DNA of 20,582 nt from an uncultured Myxococcales bacterium (GCA_903911905.1 CAIWFK010000823.1:1-20582); one strand, 5' to 3'. Positions 1 to 16,651 are shown, counted from the first letter of the stretch. Notes: generated by a model from the letters alone, not told the origin. Numbers and translations: made by a program.

Positions 1-1086
1 ATTCGCACCCCCATGAACGGGGTGCTGGGCATGACCAGCGTGATGCTGGGGCTAAAGGGGCTGCCGCCCGAGGTGCGCGAAGGGCTGACCACCATTCAGC
101 AGAGCGGCAGCACCTTGATGGCCGTCATCAACGACATTCTCGACTTCTCGAAGATCGAATCGGGCCGCATGGTGCTCGAGCGCGAGCCCATCGACCTGCG
201 CGCCGAGTTCTCGGCGCTCAAGGCGCTGCTCGAAGGCGTGGCGACCGAGCACGACAACCACTTCGTGCTCACCATTTCCGACGAGGTGCCCTCGTACGTC
301 GCGGGTGACCCGGTGCGGCTGCGCCAGGTGGCGCTCAACCTGCTGTCGAACGCGCTCAAGTTCACCACCGTCGGCCGGGTCGAAGCGCGGCTCTTCGTGC
401 GCGAGGGCCAGTTGGTGCTCGAGGTCACCGACAGCGGCATCGGCATGAGCCCGCAGGTCCTCGAGCGGCTCTTCCAGCCCTTCACCCAGGCTGACGCCTC
501 GACGACCCGCCGTTTTGGCGGCACGGGCCTGGGCCTGGCCATCGTGCGGCGCCTGGTCGAGGCCATGAAGGGCTCCATCACCGCGAGCAGCGTCGTCGGT
601 CGGGGCAGCACCTTCACCGTGACCCTGCCGATGGACGTGGTGCCCCCGCCGCCGAACGCCACCCCCACCCCGGTTCGCGCCGCGCGCACGCTGCGGGTGC
701 TGCTGGCCGAAGACAACCCCATCAACCAGCGCGTGGCGCGCGGGCTGCTCGAGCAACTGGGTCACGAGGTGGTGATGGCCGACGACGGCCAGCAGGCGCT
801 CGACCGCCTCACCGCCGCCGACTTCGACATCATCCTCATGGACTGTCACATGCCGGTGATGGACGGCTTCGAGGCCACCCGCATCGTGCGCGAGCGCAAG
901 GGCCGCACGCAGCCCATCATCGCGCTGACCGCCGCCTCGCTGCCCGAAGAGCAGACCCGCTGCCTCGAGGCCGGCATGGACGCGGTGTTGCTCAAGCCCG
1001 TCAGGCGCGAAGACCTGCGGGCCATGCTCGAGCGCTACGCCGGCCCCTCAGGCGTCGCTCCCTTGCCCGCCCAGCGCGCCGAGTGA
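1..1086 (+). CDS. Hybrid sensor histidine kinase, 5'-truncated by the window edge. It carries the tail of HisKA, a HATPase_c domain and a C-terminal receiver domain.
   Basis: The frame is open from nt 1. The first residues 'IRTPMNGVLGM' are the end of an H-box (HELRTPxNxI). ATPase boxes are present (NLLSNALKF, DSGIGM, GGTGLGLAIV). The receiver domain has 'RVLLAEDNPIN', the phospho-Asp context 'IILMDCHMPVMDG' and 'LLKP'. GC3 bias is strong. The stop is TGA at 1084-1086. Confidence 0.9.
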   Translation: MRTPMNGVLGMTSVMLGLKGLPPEVREGLTTIQQSGSTLMAVINDILDFSKIESGRMVLEREPIDLRAEFSALKALLEGVATEHDNHFVLTISDEVPSYVAGDPVRLRQVALNLLSNALKFTTVGRVEARLFVREGQLVLEVTDSGIGMSPQVLERLFQPFTQADASTTRRFGGTGLGLAIVRRLVEAMKGSITASSVVGRGSTFTVTLPMDVVPPPPNATPTPVRAARTLRVLLAEDNPINQRVARGLLEQLGHEVVMADDGQQALDRLTAADFDIILMDCHMPVMDGFEATRIVRERKGRTQPIIALTAASLPEEQTRCLEAGMDAVLLKPVRREDLRAMLERYAGPSGVAPLPAQRAE

Positions 1087-3189
1087 CACCGGCAGTCGTG
1101 CGAGCAGCCGCTCGGCGACGTCGGCCACCGAGCCTCCTCCCAGAATGGCCAGTGGCGACAGGTTCTCGGTCAGCGCGGCGGCCAGGTGCTGGTTGCCCAG
1201 CGACTTCAAGGTGGCGATGAGCTCGGGCGCCAGGGCGCCCATCTGCTTCTGGAAGGCCTCGACGCTGGCCTCGAGGCGGGTTCGCTCGACGGCGGCGAGG
1301 CGGCTCTGCGCTTCGGCCTGCGCGGCGCTGCTGAGGGCGAGCGCCTGGGCCTCGTTCTGCGCGCGGCCGACCACGTCGACCCGCTGGGCCTCGACCGTGG
1401 CCTCCGCCTTCGCCACTACCAGCGTGCGGCGCGCGTGCTCGAGCGCCACCGTGGCCACGAGGGTGGCGCGCTGGGCCTCGGCGATGCCGCGGTTGACCTC
1501 TTCCTTCGCGCGCTCGTTGACCAGGCGCAGGTCTTCCTTGCGGCGGGTGACCTCGCTGGCGATGGCGGTGCGCTGGGCGTCGGTGAGCAGCTTCTGAACG
1601 TCTTCGTCGAGAATGCGTACGTCGAGCACCTCGACGTCGTAGACGAGCATGCCGTTCTCTTCGAACTCGCGCCCCTCGCGTCGGCCGGCGTCGACCTTCT
1701 TGCCCAGGATGGCGCCTCGAATGAGCTCCGTACTGGTGCGGTGCAGCAGCTCGATGGGGCAGGCCCTCACCGCCGCGCGCACGATGGACCCCAGGTGGTC
1801 GCACAGCAGGGCCACGTAGTTCTTCACGTTGAACCACCGCACGTCGGGCTTGCTCTCGTGCGAGCTGAAGCTGACCCGGTACGAGAGCTCGAGCTCGAGT
1901 TCGACGTGGTCGCTGGTGCGCACCGTCACCTGGTCCGAGACCCGGTTGCCGTCGACCAGCAGGAAGCAGGTGGGCAACAGCGCGTCGTCGCGCTTGGGGG
2001 TGCCGGTCGAGAGGGTCAGCACCTCGAGCTCTTCGTCGTGGTCGAGCACCCGCACCTGTGGGCCCTTCACCACTTCGCGGCGGTGCGTGCCGGTGACCAG
2101 CACCGCGTAGCTGGGGGGAATGGTGATGACCGGGGCGCGCTTGCTGTCCACCTTGCCCAGGCCCCACAGCGCGGCCACCTCGGGCGGCACCGGGCGCGAG
2201 AGCAGCTCGACGCGCGTCGGGTCGGGCAAGTAGGTGGTGGGCCCGGCGATGGTCGAGATGACGCCGGTGCCGATGTCTCGCACCGAGATGGCTTCCTTGT
2301 CGGCGAGCGGAATCGCCGCCACTTCGCCGAGCACCTCGAGCTCCTCTGTCGGAAAGACGTAGCCCTCGTGCCCCGAGAGGAACAGCTCTTGCCCGCCCTC
2401 GTACTTGCCCGGTGGCACCTGGTCGCCCGCCTTGGCCTCGAAGCTGCGCAGCACGCGCACGTGCAGGCCCCGCTCGCGCCGCAGCGGAAAGGCGGCGAAG
2501 GCGCGTCGACCCTCGTGGGTGACGAAGTCCTCCCAGGCCTCGGGGAAGACCACGCCGGGGCCTCGCACGAAGCGGCGGCGACCGCGGGGCCCGCGCAGCA
2601 CGCAGTACTGGCCTTCGAGCAGGGTGACGGCGTTGCGCACGAAGGCGCCCTTCTCGTCGGGCAGCACCTCGAGGCCGGTGCGCGGAATCCAGAAGCTGAC
2701 GTCGTGGCCCGAGACGATGCGCTCGGTGCCGATGGGGCCGGCCTCGGGGCCGTCGACCAGGTCGTAGACGCGAATGCGCAGGTATTGGTCTTCGGCCAGC
2801 TCGTGCCCGGCGAGCACCTTGGCCCGCTGCCCCGGCCAGAGCGGGAAGGTCGCAGGGCCCGGCACCACCACGCGGCGGCCGGTGAGCAGCTCGGCCGACG
2901 AATTGCTGCCCTTCACGGGCCTCGCGGCCGCTTCCTTGAGGGGGTTCTCGAGCACCACGTACTGCGCGCTCGAGGCGGTGACGAAGGGGCTGACGCCGCC
3001 GCCGCCGTCGTCGCTGCGCACCGGCGCGAAGCGACCCTCGCGGTACTCGACCAGGCGCTCGGTGTTGGACAGCGAAATCTTGGTCGGGCCGACGTAGAGC
3101 ACGATGTCGCCCTTGGTCAGGTCCTGCACGTAGGCGTACTCGTTGGCGGCTACCAGAATGTCGCGTTCGCGAAGGTCGCGCTCGGCCAT
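1048..3189 (-). CDS. Major vault protein (MVP) homolog: N-terminal MVP repeats, an SPFH/band-7-like shoulder domain and a C-terminal A/E/Q-rich cap-helix region.
   Basis: 713-aa ORF. The N-terminus 'ILVAANEYAYVQDLTKGDIVLYVGPTKISL' aligns with human MVP '[29 protein letters not shown]'. The segment 'EAISVRDIGTGVISTIAGPTTYL' matches MVP '[23 protein letters not shown]'. The segment 'LEVLTLSTGTPKRDDALLPTCFLLVDGNRVSDQVTVRTSDHVELELELSYRVSF' matches MVP '[53 protein letters not shown]'. The C-terminal 'ATLKSLGNQ' matches MVP 'LQSLGLKSTL'. There is a good SD (AGGAG) 8 nt upstream of the ATG at 3189. The 3' end overlaps the convergent kinase by 39 bp. Confidence 0.88.
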   Translation of the reverse strand: MAERDLRERDILVAANEYAYVQDLTKGDIVLYVGPTKISLSNTERLVEYREGRFAPVRSDDGGGGVSPFVTASSAQYVVLENPLKEAAARPVKGSNSSAELLTGRRVVVPGPATFPLWPGQRAKVLAGHELAEDQYLRIRVYDLVDGPEAGPIGTERIVSGHDVSFWIPRTGLEVLPDEKGAFVRNAVTLLEGQYCVLRGPRGRRRFVRGPGVVFPEAWEDFVTHEGRRAFAAFPLRRERGLHVRVLRSFEAKAGDQVPPGKYEGGQELFLSGHEGYVFPTEELEVLGEVAAIPLADKEAISVRDIGTGVISTIAGPTTYLPDPTRVELLSRPVPPEVAALWGLGKVDSKRAPVITIPPSYAVLVTGTHRREVVKGPQVRVLDHDEELEVLTLSTGTPKRDDALLPTCFLLVDGNRVSDQVTVRTSDHVELELELSYRVSFSSHESKPDVRWFNVKNYVALLCDHLGSIVRAAVRACPIELLHRTSTELIRGAILGKKVDAGRREGREFEENGMLVYDVEVLDVRILDEDVQKLLTDAQRTAIASEVTRRKEDLRLVNERAKEEVNRGIAEAQRATLVATVALEHARRTLVVAKAEATVEAQRVDVVGRAQNEAQALALSSAAQAEAQSRLAAVERTRLEASVEAFQKQMGALAPELIATLKSLGNQHLAAALTENLSPLAILGGGSVADVAERLLARLPVSLGALGGQGSDA

Positions 3190-3330
3190 GGTCGTGCTCC
3201 TGTGCAGCGGGGAGCCGACGGGTGGTGCGAGCGCGGTGCCAGCCGGTCGCTCAGGCGGTTGCGGGCGCGAGCTGCGCCAGTTCGGAGCGAGGGCGGTGTG
3301 AGTGCATCGTGCCGGAATGGGGCGACCGCG

Positions 3331-3561
3331 TCAGCCGCCACCGCCGCGCAGGGTCCACACCTCGCGACCGGTCTTCAGCTTCTTCACGTCGACGGAAAAA
3401 GCGGCGTTTTCGGCGTCGGCCATCGCCTTGAGCTCGGCGAGGTCGGCGGGCGTGCCGTCGCAGAAGCCCATGGGGCGGGTGGTGTCGGGCAGCAACAACT
3501 GCACCTTGAACTCGCCTTTGTCCCACCGGGTCTGCGTCTGGTTGTTGAAGGGGTGAATCAT
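3331..3561 (-). CDS. Hypothetical small protein of 76 aa (MIHPFNNQ...WTLRGGGG). The C-terminal Gly-Gly tail is reminiscent of beta-grasp / ubiquitin-like modifiers.
   Basis: GC3 bias is strong across the whole ORF. The ATG at 3561 is preceded by 'TAGGGTGGTCGGC' (a GGTGG SD about 7 nt upstream). An alternative GTG start lies at 3570. The protein ends ...REVWTLRGGGG. It has no recognisable family by eye. Confidence 0.5.
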   Translation of the reverse strand: MIHPFNNQTQTRWDKGEFKVQLLLPDTTRPMGFCDGTPADLAELKAMADAENAAFSVDVKKLKTGREVWTLRGGGG

Positions 3562-3571
3562 GCCGACCACC

Positions 3572-3781
3572 CTACACGGTCGGTCGACGGGCGGGGTGCC
3601 GCAGCGGGCAGGGGTACTTGCCCACGGCCAGGCGTACGCCGTCTTCGGCCGTCAGCAGGTGATGCTCGTCGAGCCGCGCGGTGATGACGCAGCCGCAGAC
3701 CAACTCGAGCGTGGCGTCGATGCGCCCGTCGGCCGAGGGCCTGGCTTCGTGCACGATGCGGCGTACGGCCTGCGAGGTCAT
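3572..3781 (-). CDS. Hypothetical small protein of 69 aa, containing LVCGCV and YPCP motifs.
   Basis: GC3 bias is strong. The stop (TAG 3572-3574) lies 10 nt upstream of the start of the next small gene, which suggests one transcript with the MVP gene. No family assignment was possible. Confidence 0.45.
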   Translation of the reverse strand: MTSQAVRRIVHEARPSADGRIDATLELVCGCVITARLDEHHLLTAEDGVRLAVGKYPCPLRHPARRPTV

Positions 3782-3832
3782 GGCTCGCGACGGAACACGG
3801 GCTCGGGGGTGGGGTCAAGCGGTGGGAAGCGG

Positions 3833-4786
3833 TCACCAGCCCGCGAACTTCTCGAGCGCGCCGAGCGTGCCGTTGAACACGTCGCGGTCATAGCTCGGGC
3901 CGTCGTTGTACTGCACGAAGGGCACGTTCGAGGGCACCGAGCCGCCCCACTTCGCTTCCCACAGGGGCGCGTTGGGGACCGCCTGCTTCGCGCGCGCGAC
4001 CTCGCTGCCCGACGTGTAGACCAGCGGCCAGAGGCCGGTGACGCGGTGAATTTCGGTGGCGGCGTCGTGCAGGGCCCTGGGGTCCTTGAGCGCCGAGGCT
4101 TCCCAGTCGAGCGCCAGCCGCGTGCCGGCAGCGAGCTTGCCGTGAATGCCCAGTTCCTTCATGAAGAACTGCGCCTGGGCCTTGCCGTTGCCGGGGCGCA
4201 TGAAGTGGTACGCGATGCGCAGCTTCATCGAGCCCTTCTTGATGGCGGTGCCCAGCTCGGCCCAGCGCTTCCGGAAGGTGGGGTCGACGTAGCTGGTGCC
4301 CTCGGTGGCTTTGATGGAGCTGAAGCGCGCGCCGCGAATCGACTGCTGGAAGGTGGCTTCCGACTGGTAGTGCGAGGTGTCGGCGCCGTACAGGTGACCG
4401 GGGCCGGGCTTCCACGGCTGGGTGGGCGGCCTGGCGGTGGGGGGCTGGTGCGCGGGTGGCGCCTTCACCGGGGGCAGGCCGAGCAGCTTGCGGTCGGCGT
4501 CGAGCTCCGTGCGGCTCATGGCGCTGGCGGCTTTGGCCAGCAGCGGCGCGGCGGCCTTCTTGTCGGCGGCGACGCGGGCGTCTTCGACGGTCGTGATGGC
4601 GCCCTTCATCGCACCCAGGGCGAAGGCCTTCGAGACCAGCGCGAGCGAAGGTGCGGCGAGGAACTGGTCGACGACCTTCTTTTCCTGCACGTCGATGGCG
4701 GCGAGGGCCTTGCGTTCCTTCGCCTCCTCGTTCTTGAGGGTGGTGATGGCGGTGCGGGCCCGGGCGACGGTGAGGTTCGAGGTCAT
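3833..4786 (-). CDS. Glycoside hydrolase family 25 lysozyme/muramidase with an N-terminal Ala/Lys-rich helical extension of about 120 aa and a Pro-rich linker. No signal peptide.
   Basis: GH25 hallmarks: 'LYGADTSHYQ' (the N-terminal Asp box), 'GARFSSIKATEG', 'YHFMRP', 'LALDWEA', 'PLVYTS', 'LWEAKWG', 'FVQYNDGPSYDRDVFNG'. The N-terminal 120 aa are coding (good GC3), but they are neither hydrophobic nor signal-like. Confidence 0.8.
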   Translation of the reverse strand: MTSNLTVARARTAITTLKNEEAKERKALAAIDVQEKKVVDQFLAAPSLALVSKAFALGAMKGAITTVEDARVAADKKAAAPLLAKAASAMSRTELDADRKLLGLPPVKAPPAHQPPTARPPTQPWKPGPGHLYGADTSHYQSEATFQQSIRGARFSSIKATEGTSYVDPTFRKRWAELGTAIKKGSMKLRIAYHFMRPGNGKAQAQFFMKELGIHGKLAAGTRLALDWEASALKDPRALHDAATEIHRVTGLWPLVYTSGSEVARAKQAVPNAPLWEAKWGGSVPSNVPFVQYNDGPSYDRDVFNGTLGALEKFAGW

Positions 4787-4939
4787 GTCTGGTTGTCGGC
4801 AAGGGGCGGCGAGACGATTTCGCGCGCGGGTGCGACGACCGTTGACGTTTCGAGCCGCATTTCGGCGCGAATTTCGGGCATGAAAAACTCCACCCTCCTG
4901 GTCGGGGGGTGGAGTCGGGCCCTGCGGCCAGGCTGACTT

Positions 4940-5470
4940 TCAGAGTTCGCGGCTCATCAGCAGGCGAAGCTTGCCGCTCTTCTTCGAGACCACGGTGGCG
5001 ACGGTGGTGAAGCCGGCCTTGCGGTAGAAGCTGACCGCGGGAGAATTTGCGGGGTCGACGCGCAGGGCCAGGGTCTTGCGGTTCATGTCGCGGGCGAGCG
5101 TGAGGCCCTGTTCGAGCACCACGGCGCCCATGCCCTTCTGCCGCAGTTCCTGCTTCACGACGATGTTACGCATGTACGCGGCGCCCGGCACCGGGCCGTC
5201 GCGCTCGATGGTGACGTAGCCGACGACCGCGCCGCCGAGCTTGGCCACCGAAATGAAGGGGCGCAGCTTGGTGAGCGCCTCGAGGCTCTCGCCCTGGGCT
5301 TCACCGCGGGCCTTCCATGGCTCTGACGCACTGCGGAGCGTGGCCAGCGCGTTCATGTCTTCGTCGGTGGGCACGGCGAACTTCACCTGCCCCTTGAAGT
5401 CGGCCGGCAACGTCACCGGCGGAAGCGTGGAATTCGCGCCAGTGGAGGTGTCAATCTGCTTGTCGGTCAT
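4940..5470 (-). CDS. GNAT-family N-acetyltransferase.
   Basis: 176 aa. The acetyl-CoA motif region is 'IVVKQELRQKGMGAVVLEQGLTLARD' (Q/RxxGxG/A). The C-terminal 'VSFYRKAGF' is typical of GNAT. SD 'AAGGGA' lies 6-11 nt upstream of the ATG at 5470. Confidence 0.75.
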   Translation of the reverse strand: MTDKQIDTSTGANSTLPPVTLPADFKGQVKFAVPTDEDMNALATLRSASEPWKARGEAQGESLEALTKLRPFISVAKLGGAVVGYVTIERDGPVPGAAYMRNIVVKQELRQKGMGAVVLEQGLTLARDMNRKTLALRVDPANSPAVSFYRKAGFTTVATVVSKKSGKLRLLMSREL

Positions 5471-5684
5471 GGTTCCCTTTCGATGCCCCGCATCTACAGC
5501 TTCGGCTCGGCCGCCCTTGATCCTAACAAACGCATGGGGCGCGCAGGAATTTCAATGGCGTGGATCAAGCGTAGGTGGCGAACCCACAAAGACATCGATG
5601 TCGGTGTCGGGCGCGAGGGCGACTGGTCGAAAGTCTTGAGAAACACTGGGCAGCCGTCGCGTTTGGCCGCACAATCAGGTCACC
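5471..5684. promoter_or_regulatory. Divergent intergenic region, presumed to hold the promoters for the GNAT and MglA-like genes. Its GC content is noticeably lower than the flanking sequence.
   Basis: AT-enriched stretch (e.g. 'tcctaacaaacgcatgg', 'aaagtcttgagaaacactgg'). The only ORF here (5483-5710) has poor codon usage. Confidence 0.3.
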
Positions 5685-6389
5685 GTGCAACTGAACCACG
5701 CCCAGCGTGAGCTGACGGTCAAGATCGTCTACTACGGCCCCGGCCTGTCGGGGAAAACGACCAACCTGCAGATGGTGCATCAGCGCACGGCCAGCGACGT
5801 GCGCGGCCGCCTGCTGACGGTCGAGACCCACGACGATCGGACCCTCTTCTTCGATCTGCTTCCCGTCTTCTTCAGCACCGCCAACGGCTTCAAGGTGAAG
5901 GTCAAGCTGTTCACCGTGCCCGGGCAGGTCATTCACAACGCGACCCGACGCATCGTGCTGCAGGGCGCCGACGCGGTGGCCTTCATCGCCGACAGCCGCC
6001 GCTCGATGGGGCCCGACAACAACGCGTACTGGAAGAACCTGCTCGAGAACATGCGCGAGAACGGGCTCGACCCCGCGCAGGTGCCGGTGGTCATTCAGTA
6101 CAACAAGCGCGATCTGCCCGACGCCAAGACCGACGCCGAGATCGAAGAGACCCGCAAGAAGGGCAAGGAACCGGTGGTCGGCGCCATCGCCATTCGCGGC
6201 GTGGGCGTGCTCGAAACGCTGCACGCGGTACTGCAGGTGGGCTACCGCGCCATCGACGCGCGCGCCGGGCTGACCAAGAACATCGGCCTGACCGAACGCG
6301 AATTCCTGGGGCAGGTCTTCGCCAACATCGACACCACGGGCACCGAGCTCGAAAAGGCGTTTCCGCCGCGCAAGGTGGAAGCGAAATGA
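5685..6389 (+). CDS. MglA-family Ras-like small GTPase paralog with a C-terminal extension of about 40 aa.
   Basis: GTG start. '[22 protein letters not shown]' is near-identical to Myxococcus MglA '[22 protein letters not shown]'. Switch I is '[11 protein letters not shown]' (intrinsic Arg retained). Switch II is 'FTVPGQV' (Gln retained). 'VIQYNKRDL' is the NKxD box. '[13 protein letters not shown]' is the SAK-like box. The protein is 234 aa, versus about 195 aa for canonical MglA. Its stop overlaps the next start (ATGA). Confidence 0.9.
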   Translation: [234 protein letters not shown]

Positions 6390-7864
6390 GGCAGGGCGAG
6401 TCGGTGCTGCAGCGTCGAATCTCGCTCGGCGAGATGCTCGACGGCGAGTCCTTCACCGAAGTGGTGAAGGGCTTCGTCGAGCTCTACCGCGTGGGCATCA
6501 AGGTGTTCGACGACAAGGGCGCGAAGCTCGCCGACATCAAGATCAACAACGGTGACTTCTGTGGCTACGTCTTCAGCTTTCCCGAAGGGCGTCGCCGCTG
6601 TACGGCCACCGTGGGCCGGGTGAAGGACGGCCCGGTCGCCACCACCCACGGTGCGCGGCTGCCGGTGCTCGAGAGCGACCTCGTACCGCAGGCCAGGGGC
6701 ATGGTGACCGTGCCCTGCTTTACCGGGCTGCGGTACCTGATCATGCCCATTCTGTGGGAAGGCGACACCATGGGCCGGGTGGTGTTCGGGCCCTTCACGC
6801 CCGAAGACCTGGTCGACTTCCCGCCGCGCTCGCTGACCGAGGTCACCGACGCCTTCGACGTCGGCAACGCGAAGACCCTGGTCGAGAAGGTGCGGCGCGC
6901 GCCCGAGAGCACCATCGCCCGCATCATGCTGCACTTCGGTCAGTTGATGCAGACCATGCTCTTCGCCGGTCAGAAGATGTTCCTGACCAGCCAGTTGCAC
7001 ATCGAGGCCACGCTCGAACAGAACCGCGAGCTCGAGGAACGCAACCGCAAGCTCGAGGACATGAACACCCGCCTCAAGGAACTCGACCGGCTCAAGAGCG
7101 CGTTCCTGGCCACGGTCAGTCACGAGCTGCGCACGCCGCTGACCAGCATCATCGGCTATTCGGAAATGCTGGCCGAGGGGCTGGCCGGCACGCTCAACGA
7201 CGAGCAGGTCGACTACGTGCGCACCATCATGGAAAAGGGCGAGACGCTGCTCAAGCTGATCAGCAGCATTCTCGACATCTCGCAGATCGAAGCCGGCAAG
7301 GTGCGGCTCAACTTCGAGCCGATGGACGCCATCGAGCTGGTGACCTCGTCGGTGAGCAGCTTGAAGCCGCAGGCGCACAAGAAGGGCGTGGTGCTCGAGG
7401 CCAGGGTGCCCTCGCGAGTCGCCCAGGTGAACGGCGACCGCGATCGCCTTCGCCAGGTCATCGTCAATCTGCTCGCCAACGCGGTGAAGTTCACGCCCAA
7501 GGCCGGTCGGGTCACCGTGACCTTGAGCGAGGTGGGGCACCAGCCCGACCTGAACGCCCAAGGCTACCGCATCATCGTCGAGGACTCGGGCGTGGGCATT
7601 CCCGCCGACCAGTTCGACAAGATCTTCCACAGCTTCTACCAGGTCGACTCGAGCTCGACGCGCGAGTACGGCGGCGCGGGCCTGGGGCTGGCCATCGTCA
7701 AGAGCTTCGTCGAAGGCCACGGCGGCGTGGTGCGGGTGGCCAGTGAAATGGGCCACGGCAGCCGCTTCACGCTGATTCTGCCGGTGGTGCCGTCGTTGCA
7801 GCCGCAGGTGCAGATCACCCCTCCGGTGACCGCGCTGCAGGCACCCGTCGACGACCGCTTCTAG
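6386..7864 (+). CDS. Cytoplasmic sensor histidine kinase: an N-terminal PocR-like sensory domain, a coiled coil, HisKA and HATPase_c. No TM segments and no receiver domain.
   Basis: The N-terminus 'VFDDKGAKLA...DFCGYVFSFPEGRRRC...VPCFTGLRYLIMPILWEGDTMGRVVFGPF' fits the PocR pattern (dxdG...FC...G..rC....ChaGl.d..pI...G..iG.....gp). The coiled coil is 'LEQNRELEERNRKLEDMNTRLKELDRLKSAFLA'. The H-box is 'VSHELRTPLTSIIGYSEML', followed by N, G1, F and G2 boxes. SD 'AAGGTGGAAG' lies upstream. The start overlaps the stop of the MglA-like gene. Confidence 0.88.
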   Translation: MRQGESVLQRRISLGEMLDGESFTEVVKGFVELYRVGIKVFDDKGAKLADIKINNGDFCGYVFSFPEGRRRCTATVGRVKDGPVATTHGARLPVLESDLVPQARGMVTVPCFTGLRYLIMPILWEGDTMGRVVFGPFTPEDLVDFPPRSLTEVTDAFDVGNAKTLVEKVRRAPESTIARIMLHFGQLMQTMLFAGQKMFLTSQLHIEATLEQNRELEERNRKLEDMNTRLKELDRLKSAFLATVSHELRTPLTSIIGYSEMLAEGLAGTLNDEQVDYVRTIMEKGETLLKLISSILDISQIEAGKVRLNFEPMDAIELVTSSVSSLKPQAHKKGVVLEARVPSRVAQVNGDRDRLRQVIVNLLANAVKFTPKAGRVTVTLSEVGHQPDLNAQGYRIIVEDSGVGIPADQFDKIFHSFYQVDSSSTREYGGAGLGLAIVKSFVEGHGGVVRVASEMGHGSRFTLILPVVPSLQPQVQITPPVTALQAPVDDRF

Positions 7865-15413: not shown

Positions 15414-16565
15414 TCACCAACTGGTCAGAATGTCGGTCGTCGGAATCGTCACGCAGCCGCCGCCGGTGACGGGCATGTCGTTGGTGAGGTCCCATTCCTG
15501 GAAGGTGGCCGGGCCGGTGAGCGTGAGGTGCGCGGTGCCGGCGTCGGCGCGGTCGGCGCGGGTGGCGGTCATGCTGCCGCTGCGGGCGAAGTAGTTGGGG
15601 CCGGTGCAGCCGCCAGTCGACGTGCAGTTGGTGCTGTAGCTCGCGCAGAACAGGCAGTTGCTGAAGTTGGGCTCGCTCGCCAGGTTCCGGGTGCTGGGCA
15701 CCACGACGCCGGTGGGCGTGTTGCCGAGCGACCACACCACGTCGAGCTCGAGATAGGCGGTGGACGCACCCTTCAGGCCGGCCGTCAGCTCGAACGAGCC
15801 AGGCTGGTTGACGTAGCCGCCACTGACCGTGCTGGGCAGGGTGATGGGGGTGCAGCCGCCGCCACCCGCGCCACCGGTGCCCGTGCCGCCACCGGTCGCG
15901 GTGCCACCGCCGGTGCCAGCGGTCACGCAGCCGAAGGGCGTGCAGCTCTGGCCCGACTGGCAGGCCATGCAGCGCGCGCCGCCGGTGCCACAGAACGACA
16001 AGCTCTGCTGCGCGAAGGTGACGCAGTTGCCGTTGAGGTCGGTGCAGCCCGAGCAGGTGGTGCCGCCGCCGCCGCCGGTCGCCCCGGTGACGCAGGTGCC
16101 CGTCGAGGCATTGCACGCCAGCCCGAGCCCGCTGCAGTTGGTGCACACCTGCCCGTTGCGGCCACAGCTCGTCGCACCGGTGCCCAGCTGGCAGCCTGCG
16201 GCGGTGCAGCAACCGTTGCAGGTCGACGGCGAGCAGCTCGTCGTGCCGCCGCCACCGCCGGTCGCGAACCCGCCGCCCGTGGCGAAGCCACCACCGGTCG
16301 AGCCGTTGCCGCCACCCGCGCTGCCCAGCAGGCACACGCCCTGGTTGCAGGAGTCTCCGAGCGGGCACATGCGGCACTGGTTGCCCGACGCGCCGCAGGC
16401 CGCCACGTCGCTGCCGGGCTGGCAGTGGTTGGTCAGGTCGCAACAGCCGCTGGGGCAGCTGCGGGCGTCACAGTGCGCGGCGGTGCCACCGCCACACGAC
16501 GCGCCGAGGGAAAGGAGAAAACCGAGAAGGAAGCCGGGAACGAGCCAGCGCCAGGGGCCGTGCAT
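15414..16565 (-). CDS. Secreted modular Cys/Gly-rich protein: a signal peptide, then three Cys-rich modules separated by poly-Gly/Thr linkers, then a C-terminal beta-rich domain.
   Basis: The start was chosen at the internal Met 'MHGPWRWLVPGFLLGFLLSLGAS-CGGG' (classic n/h/c signal regions). The ORF extends to 16619 (alternative start MLAARHG). Module 1 is 'CDARSCPSGCCDLTNHCQPGSDVAACGASGNQCRMCPLGDSCNQGVC'. The linker 'GGGFATGGGFATGGGGG' follows. Modules 2 and 3 have the same C-x(2,4)-C / G-x-C rhythm. GC3 is strong. The gene lies 19 nt upstream of the kinase gene on the same strand. Confidence 0.6.
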   Translation of the reverse strand: MHGPWRWLVPGFLLGFLLSLGASCGGGTAAHCDARSCPSGCCDLTNHCQPGSDVAACGASGNQCRMCPLGDSCNQGVCLLGSAGGGNGSTGGGFATGGGFATGGGGGTTSCSPSTCNGCCTAAGCQLGTGATSCGRNGQVCTNCSGLGLACNASTGTCVTGATGGGGGTTCSGCTDLNGNCVTFAQQSLSFCGTGGARCMACQSGQSCTPFGCVTAGTGGGTATGGGTGTGGAGGGGCTPITLPSTVSGGYVNQPGSFELTAGLKGASTAYLELDVVWSLGNTPTGVVVPSTRNLASEPNFSNCLFCASYSTNCTSTGGCTGPNYFARSGSMTATRADRADAGTAHLTLTGPATFQEWDLTNDMPVTGGGCVTIPTTDILTSW

Positions 16566-16651
16566 GGGCCCCACATCCACCACTGTTGGGGCTCGAAGTC
16601 CATGCCGGGCAGCCAACATGGCGCGCTGGGGTTGTGACAGAGTGCGCGCCC

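Follow-up and report, generated by a model that had tools for sequence, protein, structure and literature searches.

The mammalian vault is a closed, two-halved shell built from major vault protein (MVP), forming a 78-mer with D39 symmetry. Its function has stayed unresolved for about 40 years, and vaults are, to our knowledge, widely described as absent from prokaryotes. A 2022 paper (PMC9778704) still calls them absent from prokaryotes. Bacterial MVP homologues have been reported by Daly et al. in 2013 (PMC3762200) from Corallococcus, Plesiocystis, Microscilla, Saprospira, Flexibacter and Herpetosiphon, and by Sokolskyi in 2019 (10.1101/872010) from Myxococcales, Cytophagales and Oscillatoriales, including a Hyalangium protein without a Band 7 match. 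Santos et al. in 2023 (10.1101/2023.11.10.566534) added phage MVP copies and gave a bacterial average of ~822 aa. For Asgard archaea, MVPs with a cap helix, a shoulder and five repeats were described in 2026 from predicted structures, and a smaller closed cup was proposed (PMC12962969). Here we describe an MVP-like gene on a 20,582-nucleotide contig of an uncultured Myxococcales bacterium (GCA_903911905.1 CAIWFK010000823.1:1-20582; this whole stretch is called the window). Because in silico reports of bacterial, including myxobacterial, MVP homologues date from 2013, 2019 and 2023, the gene is a new example and not a discovery. Points that we did not meet in the cited papers are a subfamily with seven repeats, its occurrence in our scan in uncultured organisms only, its relatively high similarity to eukaryotic MVP and the complete lack of conserved neighbours.

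The window protein has the same domain order as eukaryotic MVP (human Q14764 and PDB 11dr, 9r86, 9bw5; rat 4v60/4hl8). Its last two repeats align with the human repeats R8 and R9, its shoulder is full-length, the T-x-D-H and L-S-x-G-x-P-K motifs are shared and neither protein has a membrane anchor. It differs by having seven repeats instead of nine, a long helix of 124 residues as against the ~155 that we take for mammals (assumed boundaries 647-802), and a C-terminal segment of ~60 residues without demonstrable homology to the cap disk. The earlier bacterial MVP-like proteins (Corallococcus coralloides H8MNI3, Plesiocystis pacifica, Enhygromyxa salina, Melittangium boletus, Hyalangium A0A085WQF1, Saprospira and Microscilla) belong to the same family and partly to the same phylum (Myxococcota); they are known in silico only and annotated as hypothetical. 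Compared by description, the window protein is smaller (7 repeats and ~700-765 aa for its subfamily, as against the ~822 aa average), and it resembles Hyalangium A0A085WQF1 in giving no Band_7 match. The Asgard MVPs, by their published description, have five repeats and come from another domain of life. The SPFH cage proteins (flotillin, HflK/C, prohibitin, erlin, stomatin and QmcA) share the SPFH fold and the long helix, whereas the window protein has no membrane anchor, carries seven extra N-terminal beta-repeats and does not match Band_7.

Family membership and domain anatomy

Pfam MVP_shoulder (PF11978) matched aa 415-528 of the product over model positions 3-118 of 118 (101.4 bits, cut-off 25; E 4.4e-29). 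Vault_3 also passed its cut-off (30.1 against 28.8 bits), Vault_4 (18.9 bits) and Vault_2 (14.9-17.8 bits) were both under theirs, and no NCBIfam model matched. In a phmmer search against all PDB chains, human MVP (11dr) was found at E 6.6e-30, with human, rat and rabbit MVP all at ~1e-29 and flotillin-2 as the next-best match at E 0.27. The alignment is colinear over 457 residues (query 189-645, human MVP 275-779), and the identity to human MVP is 27-28%. A family profile built from 52 homologues matched only MVP chains in the PDB (E 5.5e-54).

A single-chain AlphaFold2 model was built from the alignment of the 52 homologues (mean predicted local distance difference test score, pLDDT, 78.3; 85-94 over residues 130-530). 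Foldseek aligned this model full-length with the human, rabbit and rat vault chains (720-840 columns, E 1e-31 to 3e-37), followed by the SPFH cage proteins flotillin, HflK/C, erlin, prohibitin, stomatin and QmcA (E 1e-5 to 3e-7). The SPFH alpha/beta fold followed by a long helix is present in the window protein, and Pfam Band_7 (PF01145) gave no match even at E <= 1. No encapsulin-like HK97-type or bacterial microcompartment (BMC/Pfam00936-type) fold was found, the fold searches returning only MVP and SPFH proteins. Taking the hidden Markov models (HMMs), the profile search and the predicted fold together, it is close to certain that the window protein is a genuine member of the MVP family, which is a branch of the SPFH superfamily.

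The gene and the domains of its product are listed below.

1048..3189, minus strand: MVP-like coding sequence, 713 aa plus a stop codon at 1048-1050; ATG start (open reading frame list and translation)
3197..3201, minus strand: Shine-Dalgarno-like AGGAG, 7 nt 5' of the ATG (read from the sequence)
2995..3168, minus strand: MVP repeat 1 (aa 8-65); five-strand module in the AlphaFold2 model; HMM match to human R8 at E 5e-4, also to the protein's own R6
2809..2994, minus strand: MVP repeat 2 (aa 66-127), with a low-confidence loop at aa 90-101; AlphaFold2 strands; HMM match to human R6 at E 5e-4
2641..2808, minus strand: MVP repeat 3 (aa 128-183); AlphaFold2 strands; HMM matches to human R6 at E 1e-4 and R3 at E 3e-3
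2497..2640, minus strand: MVP repeat 4 (aa 184-231), aligned with human R6; AlphaFold2 strands; HMM match to human R6 at E 2e-3
2320..2496, minus strand: MVP repeat 5 (aa 232-290), aligned with human R7; AlphaFold2 strands; colinear with human 323-378
2140..2319, minus strand: MVP repeat 6 (aa 291-350), equated with human R8; HMM match of 34 bits, E 1e-11; Vault_4 sub-threshold
1954..2139, minus strand: MVP repeat 7 (aa 351-412), equated with human R9; HMM match of 29 bits, E 7e-10; Vault_3 above cut-off
1975-2013, minus strand: keyhole-loop equivalent in repeat 7 (aa 393-405), from the alignment to human MVP
1606..1953, minus strand: shoulder, an SPFH2-type alpha/beta domain (aa 413-528); Pfam MVP_shoulder and AlphaFold2 model
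1234..1605, minus strand: cap helix, one continuous helix of 124 residues (aa 529-652) by DSSP on the AlphaFold2 model; aligned with human ~647-779
1051..1233, minus strand: C-terminal segment (aa 653-713), with predicted helices at 655-683 and 688-697 and a disordered tail at 699-713 (AlphaFold2)

The gene is intact and its bounds are correct. The window has ~70% GC, and the GC contents at the three codon positions (GC1/2/3) of the MVP open reading frame (ORF), 0.74/0.45/0.92, follow the same pattern as in the other window genes; this measure was used to separate real genes from shadow ORFs. An 832-aa ORF on the opposite strand (1186..3684, plus strand) that overlaps the gene was rejected as an antisense, GC-rich artefact because its values (0.91/0.48/0.71) mirror those of the MVP gene. 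The alignment of the homologues begins at residue 1 of the 713-aa protein, and a second contig from an independent assembly (ENA ERZ27313614 k141_96804), 99.9% identical over 6.2 kb, carries a gene call for exactly the same protein. A search for a sigma-70-like promoter in 800-5700 found none.

DSSP assignment on the AlphaFold2 model gives seven N-terminal modules, each with a common five-strand pattern and each bearing an x-V-x-G-[PH] signature that also marks the human repeats. All seven repeat HMMs match one or more human repeats at E < 0.01. For this repeat-by-repeat scoring we assumed approximate human repeat boundaries after Tanaka et al. 2009, and the human MVP sequence was checked residue by residue against PDB 11dr_A before use. 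By these HMM matches, repeats 6 and 7 are the one-to-one counterparts of human R8 and R9, while repeats 1-3 are not assignable to particular human repeats because their sub-profiles cross-match several MVP repeats. The phmmer alignment opens in repeat 4 (query 189 = human 275), the HMM of repeat 5 matches human R3 (E 7e-6) and R7 (E 1e-3), and the sub-threshold Vault_2 match falls in repeat 2. The count is therefore seven and not the nine of vertebrates, and the shoulder begins at aa 413-415 rather than 520. Since the number of repeats varies across the prokaryotic family and is five in the Asgard homologues, we regard it as a variant feature that does not exclude the protein from the family. 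The architecture seen in the predicted model is the eukaryotic MVP plan minus two repeats and with a shorter helix.

These results agree with the first-pass annotation, made from the sequence alone, which had called an ORF of 713 aa at 1048-3189 (here placed on the minus strand with an ATG start) a bona fide MVP homologue with the repeat region, the shoulder and the cap helix. The Pfam search that it proposed gave MVP_shoulder and Vault_3 above cut-off, and comparison of the predicted fold with the solved vault chains, rat included, found the stacked MVP repeats, fixing at seven a number that had been put at perhaps 6-7. The cap helix is retained in the predicted monomer as one 124-residue helix. 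The shortfall of ~180 aa from vertebrate MVP also holds: human MVP (893 aa) is longer by 180 aa, rat MVP (861 aa) by 148 aa. These ~150-180 missing residues are accounted for by having two repeats less, together with the shorter helix and tail.

The predicted helix breaks at P655, which like F646 and M650 is invariant in the subfamily, and F646/P655 match the position of human F795/P804. In human MVP the cap helix ends at G803, in agreement with our alignment, and at G803/P804 the D39 symmetry of the vault stops and the cap disk starts (PMC12915596). It is possible that the C-terminal segment is a counterpart of the cap disk; BLASTP alignments of some subfamily members extend to human residues 854-871. 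No Pfam family, with the cap disk and the flotillin C-terminus considered, matched this segment at E <= 10. A 19-residue hydropathy scan of the protein (pI 5.7) found no transmembrane or membrane-anchor segment, the highest Kyte-Doolittle mean being 1.25, inside the shoulder domain.

Conservation within the subfamily is highest in repeat 1, where 19 of 53 positions are invariant among the 52 homologues and the mean entropy is 0.52 bit; Q22, D23, T25-G27, G34-P35 and N42-R45 are among the invariant residues. In repeat 7 the keyhole loop, LSTGTPKRDDALL, aligns with the 13-residue loop of human MVP; L393, S394, P398 and K399 are invariant, and neither the L-S-x-G-x-P-K loop core nor the T-x-D-H motif varies within the subfamily, human MVP having both. 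The human keyhole pocket binds NAD+/ADP-ribose through R437, R504, K506, R507, H509, R511, L517, D521, F522 and W545 (PMC12280208). In the phmmer alignment K506 is kept as the invariant K399, R507 as R400 and L517 as L410, while D521 and F522 become N and R. A ligand site is thus possible, and because most of the basic contact residues are replaced its ligand, judged from the alignment, is probably not that of human MVP.

Relatives and phylogeny

A search of 5.8 billion proteins gave 425 matches at E <= 1e-5. Among the best 120 of these (the self-match P0001 aside), identity ranges from 54 to 72% and length from 672 to 832 aa; the named sources are Archangium, Myxococcaceae, Myxococcales, Planctomycetes, Gemmataceae, Blastocatellia and Acidobacteriota, and the annotations are mostly hypothetical with a few 'major vault protein' or 'HflC' (JGI). 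A scan of one genome from each of 185,579 species found 58 loci with 49-71% identity, all in metagenome-assembled genomes (MAGs): Myxococcota (Archangium, Myxococcaceae, Polyangiales, Haliangium, Labilithrix and Kofleriaceae), Planctomycetota, Acidobacteriota and one MAG labelled Clostridia (locus L019), which may be a binning error. As the scan patterns were specific to the window subfamily, 58 is a lower bound. Between Myxococcota, Planctomycetota and Acidobacteriota the members are 54-61% identical, which points to either very strong constraint or transfer between phyla.

The subfamily is compact (~700-765 aa, seven repeats) and collapses to essentially one cluster in a library of 1.84 billion representatives, where the family profile matched 1,596 clusters (50% identity) at E <= 1e-3 and 708 at E <= 1e-30. 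Bacterial MVP-like genes had at first been called sporadic, which understates these numbers. The other representatives are mostly 800-950 aa long. Longer prokaryotic and viral relatives (P0121-P0269, 800-980 aa; LR756501; A0A3G5A4K1) likewise have MVP_shoulder, Vault_3 and a long C-terminal helix; their shoulder starts at residues 444-679 in place of 415, so that they have more repeats and the repeat number varies in the prokaryotic family, and several match Band_7. They are farther from human MVP than the window subfamily, with a median of ~100 bits as against 130-171 bits; among the prokaryotic groups sampled, the seven-repeat clade scores nearest to eukaryotic MVP.

In a neighbour-joining tree the members of the subfamily form a monophyletic group, and human MVP attaches outside it by a long branch, at a short internode between the subfamily (with two representatives) and the other 70 representatives. 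With human MVP as its one eukaryote, this tree excludes only a nesting of human MVP within the clade or a recent eukaryotic origin. Santos et al. 2023 placed the Myxococcales MVPs as sister to a cluster of eukaryotes and cyanobacteria (10.1101/2023.11.10.566534), in agreement with both the tree and the higher scores of the subfamily against human MVP.

MVP-like proteins are also encoded by viruses. Three huge 'uncultured phage' genomes (462 kb, 735 kb; LR756501.1, LR756500.1, LR756503.1) encode proteins with 34% identity over 81-94% of the window protein. The one in LR756501.1 (~17.2-19.6 kb; L064:1492-3921, plus strand) is an 809-aa ORF with MVP_shoulder at E 1.2e-28, Vault_3 at 43 bits and Band_7 at 26 bits. 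Phage MVPs were published earlier from gut Caudoviricetes (Santos 2023). A Harvfovirus protein (A0A3G5A4K1 in BFVD, 802 aa, 'prohibitin domain-containing protein') aligned with our model by Foldseek over 798 columns (E 1.8e-15), and this match between predicted structures suggests that Klosneuvirus-type giant viruses carry such proteins as well.

Predicted assembly and alternative explanations

Every solved protein with an SPFH domain and a long helix (MVP, flotillin, HflK/C, prohibitin, erlin, stomatin and QmcA) forms a closed ring or dome, and MVP itself is treated as an SPFH-family cage (PMC12915596). On this analogy we consider it probable, at roughly 0.6, that the MVP-like protein is soluble, cytoplasmic and self-assembles into a closed vault-like or SPFH-like cage, and reading it as a shell or nano-compartment protein is a reasonable inference. 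As in the solved vault and SPFH cages, many copies would pack side by side, the long helices forming a parallel barrel that closes into a cap while the shoulder and the repeats form the wall. Lacking a membrane anchor, such a barrel would be soluble. The product would be a hollow dome, shorter than half a eukaryotic vault. More speculatively, the exceptionally conserved repeat 1 would be its open rim, and two domes could pair at this rim into a closed particle, as R1 of the human vault forms the waist contact between the halves (PMC12280208). The conservation of repeat 1 would fit half-to-half pairing as well as docking to another surface; with low certainty, we favour pairing. Since no partner or cargo gene travels with the MVP gene, any content would be encoded elsewhere or taken up non-specifically. 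Identity of 49-71% across Myxococcota, Planctomycetota and Acidobacteriota, together with the 19 of 53 invariant positions in repeat 1, argues for functional constraint.

Several observations weigh against this reading. The cap helix, which would form the barrel, is the least conserved domain (mean entropy 1.63 bit), is modelled at a pLDDT of 60-78 and has no significant 3.5-residue periodicity, with 21% (hydrophobicity) and 35% (conservation) of shuffles reaching the observed power. Residues 1-190 alone gave no MVP match by phmmer against the PDB (best match ribosomal protein S19, E 1.7), and for the C-terminal segment the HMM match to human 791-812 (p 0.28) gives no significant cap-disk homology. 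In further differences from the eukaryotic vault, TEP1/TROVE, PARP4 (PARP and vWA genes) and vault RNA are all absent from the 20.6-kb window, and most of the basic residues contacting NAD+ are replaced, with R504, H509, R511 and W545 becoming T, D, L and V. None of the 58 loci is from a cultured organism, and we found in the literature no report of vault-like particles in bacteria and no experimental study of the assembly of a native prokaryotic MVP. The stricter claim that the seven-repeat clade forms free, closed vault-like particles in the bacterial cytoplasm is put forward tentatively, at less than even odds. If this is true, the particles would count as the first prokaryotic vaults and would serve as a living model for the eukaryotic organelle's ancestor, with a size, symmetry and cargo logic unlike those of the eukaryotic vault. 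Expression in E. coli should be easy for a short, highly conserved, stand-alone bacterial MVP, which has no TEP1, PARP4 or vault RNA with it. Such a protein could reveal if cages arose before eukaryotes and which minimal sequence is enough to specify a shell, and could give a smaller, engineerable protein container. The window protein is thus a convenient and well-defined candidate for the question whether prokaryotes build vaults.

The closest structures after MVP are all membrane-abutting SPFH cages, and some of the longer bacterial relatives also match Band_7. It is conceivable, then, that the protein forms a single cap-closed cup whose repeat 1 rim docks on the inner side of the cytoplasmic membrane or on another cellular structure, serving there to organise a patch or to enclose a client in the manner of flotillin, HflK/C, prohibitin, erlin and stomatin; the high conservation of repeat 1 is what a specific docking surface would be expected to show. 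The window protein itself, however, has no transmembrane or strongly hydrophobic segment and no Band_7 match at E <= 1, its N-terminal wall consists of MVP repeats that form a soluble particle in eukaryotes, and no membrane protein gene is conserved beside the homologues, so that we hold docking of this kind to be unlikely, if still worth serious attention. The poorly conserved cap helix without packing periodicity could also speak for a protein that makes no cage, acting as a monomer, small oligomer or filament. The invariant L-S-x-G-x-P-K and T-x-D-H motifs, common to human MVP, would suit a scaffold that binds or sequesters nucleotides, and a link to gliding motility was speculated on by Sokolskyi 2019 (10.1101/872010). 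Such roles seem quite improbable, given that all structurally characterised shoulder and long-helix proteins form a closed ring or cage (PMC12915596), that most of the basic NAD+-contact residues of human MVP are lost and that the motility link is a taxonomic correlation only, the gene being carried by Planctomycetota and Acidobacteriota too.

Two further explanations concern the origin of the gene rather than the form of its product. The protein encoded upstream by the GH25 gene resembles phage endolysins (phrog_291, E 1.4e-22), and both the huge phages of 462-735 kb (34% identity) and gut phages (Santos 2023) carry MVP-like genes, as would be expected if the gene were cargo of a mobile element or phage, or belonged to a phage-derived or defence island. 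We regard this as very improbable: the MVP protein has no PADLOC or PHROGs match, the window holds no tRNA, integrase, other phage structural genes or compositional break, and GH25 stands beside the homologue in none of the 58 other loci. MVP is known above all from eukaryotes, and Daly et al. 2013 (PMC3762200) raised transfer from a eukaryote to a bacterium as a possibility. For the window gene, recent transfer from a eukaryote is effectively refuted, and eukaryotic contamination of the assembly has next to no probability. The GC3 of the gene (0.92) resembles that of the host, its ribosome-binding site and its neighbours on the 20.6-kb contig are bacterial, and the locus was recovered again in a second assembly. 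Its product is only 27-28% identical to human MVP and lies within a large and diverse prokaryotic family (708 clusters at E <= 1e-30), in a monophyletic subfamily that human MVP joins from outside on a long branch.

Genomic context

The MVP gene lies, as the first-pass annotation had it, between a two-component kinase and two tiny genes. A hybrid histidine kinase (13..1086, plus strand; HisKA-HATPase_c-REC) is convergent with it, with an overlap of 39 nt at the 3' end of the MVP gene. The N-terminus of the kinase is cut by the start of the window, and its HisKA match begins at model position 17. The contig k141_96804 of ERZ27313614 extends past the start of the window; the gene caller there split the kinase into a 36-aa piece and an antisense ORF. 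On the other side, upstream of the MVP gene and on the same strand, two small ORFs and a GH25 gene follow after a gap of 141 nt.

3331-3570 and 3572-3781, minus strand: small ORFs of 79 aa and 69 aa; GC3 0.90
3833-4786, minus strand: GH25 muramidase, 317 aa; domain at aa 136-289, with a 135-residue N-terminal extension without assigned nature

The 79- and 69-aa ORFs have no match in Pfam, PADLOC or PHROGs, and no hydrophobic stretch was apparent on reading them. The context had also been taken as an argument for a nano-compartment or shell protein, and this argument fails. By tblastn of the window neighbours against the 58 related loci, the kinase, the small ORFs, GH25 and a GNAT gene were found beside the homologue in 0 of 58, and when the flanking ORFs were clustered all-against-all no family recurred in more than 9 of the 58 loci. 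Three loci viewed gene by gene had unrelated neighbours and an apparently monocistronic MVP gene. Small genes downstream were rejected as candidate cargo, those of a Planctomycetota locus and a Blastocatellia locus being unrelated to each other. With no neighbour conserved at the homologous loci, the genomic context says nothing on function, and the MVP gene behaves as an autonomous unit.

The rest of the window encodes a GNAT acetyltransferase, an MglA/Arf-like GTPase, a PocR-type kinase, YebC, a DUF4175 protein, a Ser/Thr kinase, an ECF sigma factor with FecR and a PilZ protein, a gene content that is myxobacterium-like. No Rfam family reached its gathering score in the window. A 401-aa ORF at 15414-16619 (minus strand) has a gene-like GC3 of 0.89, but an unusually high GC2 of 0.69 and no Pfam match; its product is probably a low-complexity protein of unassigned function. 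A 422-aa plus-strand ORF that overlaps it was rejected for its antisense GC pattern. The MglA-type Ras/Arf-like GTPase gene (5685-6389, plus strand) overlaps that of the PocR-sensor histidine kinase (6386-7864, plus strand) by 4 nt, which suggests a signalling pair.

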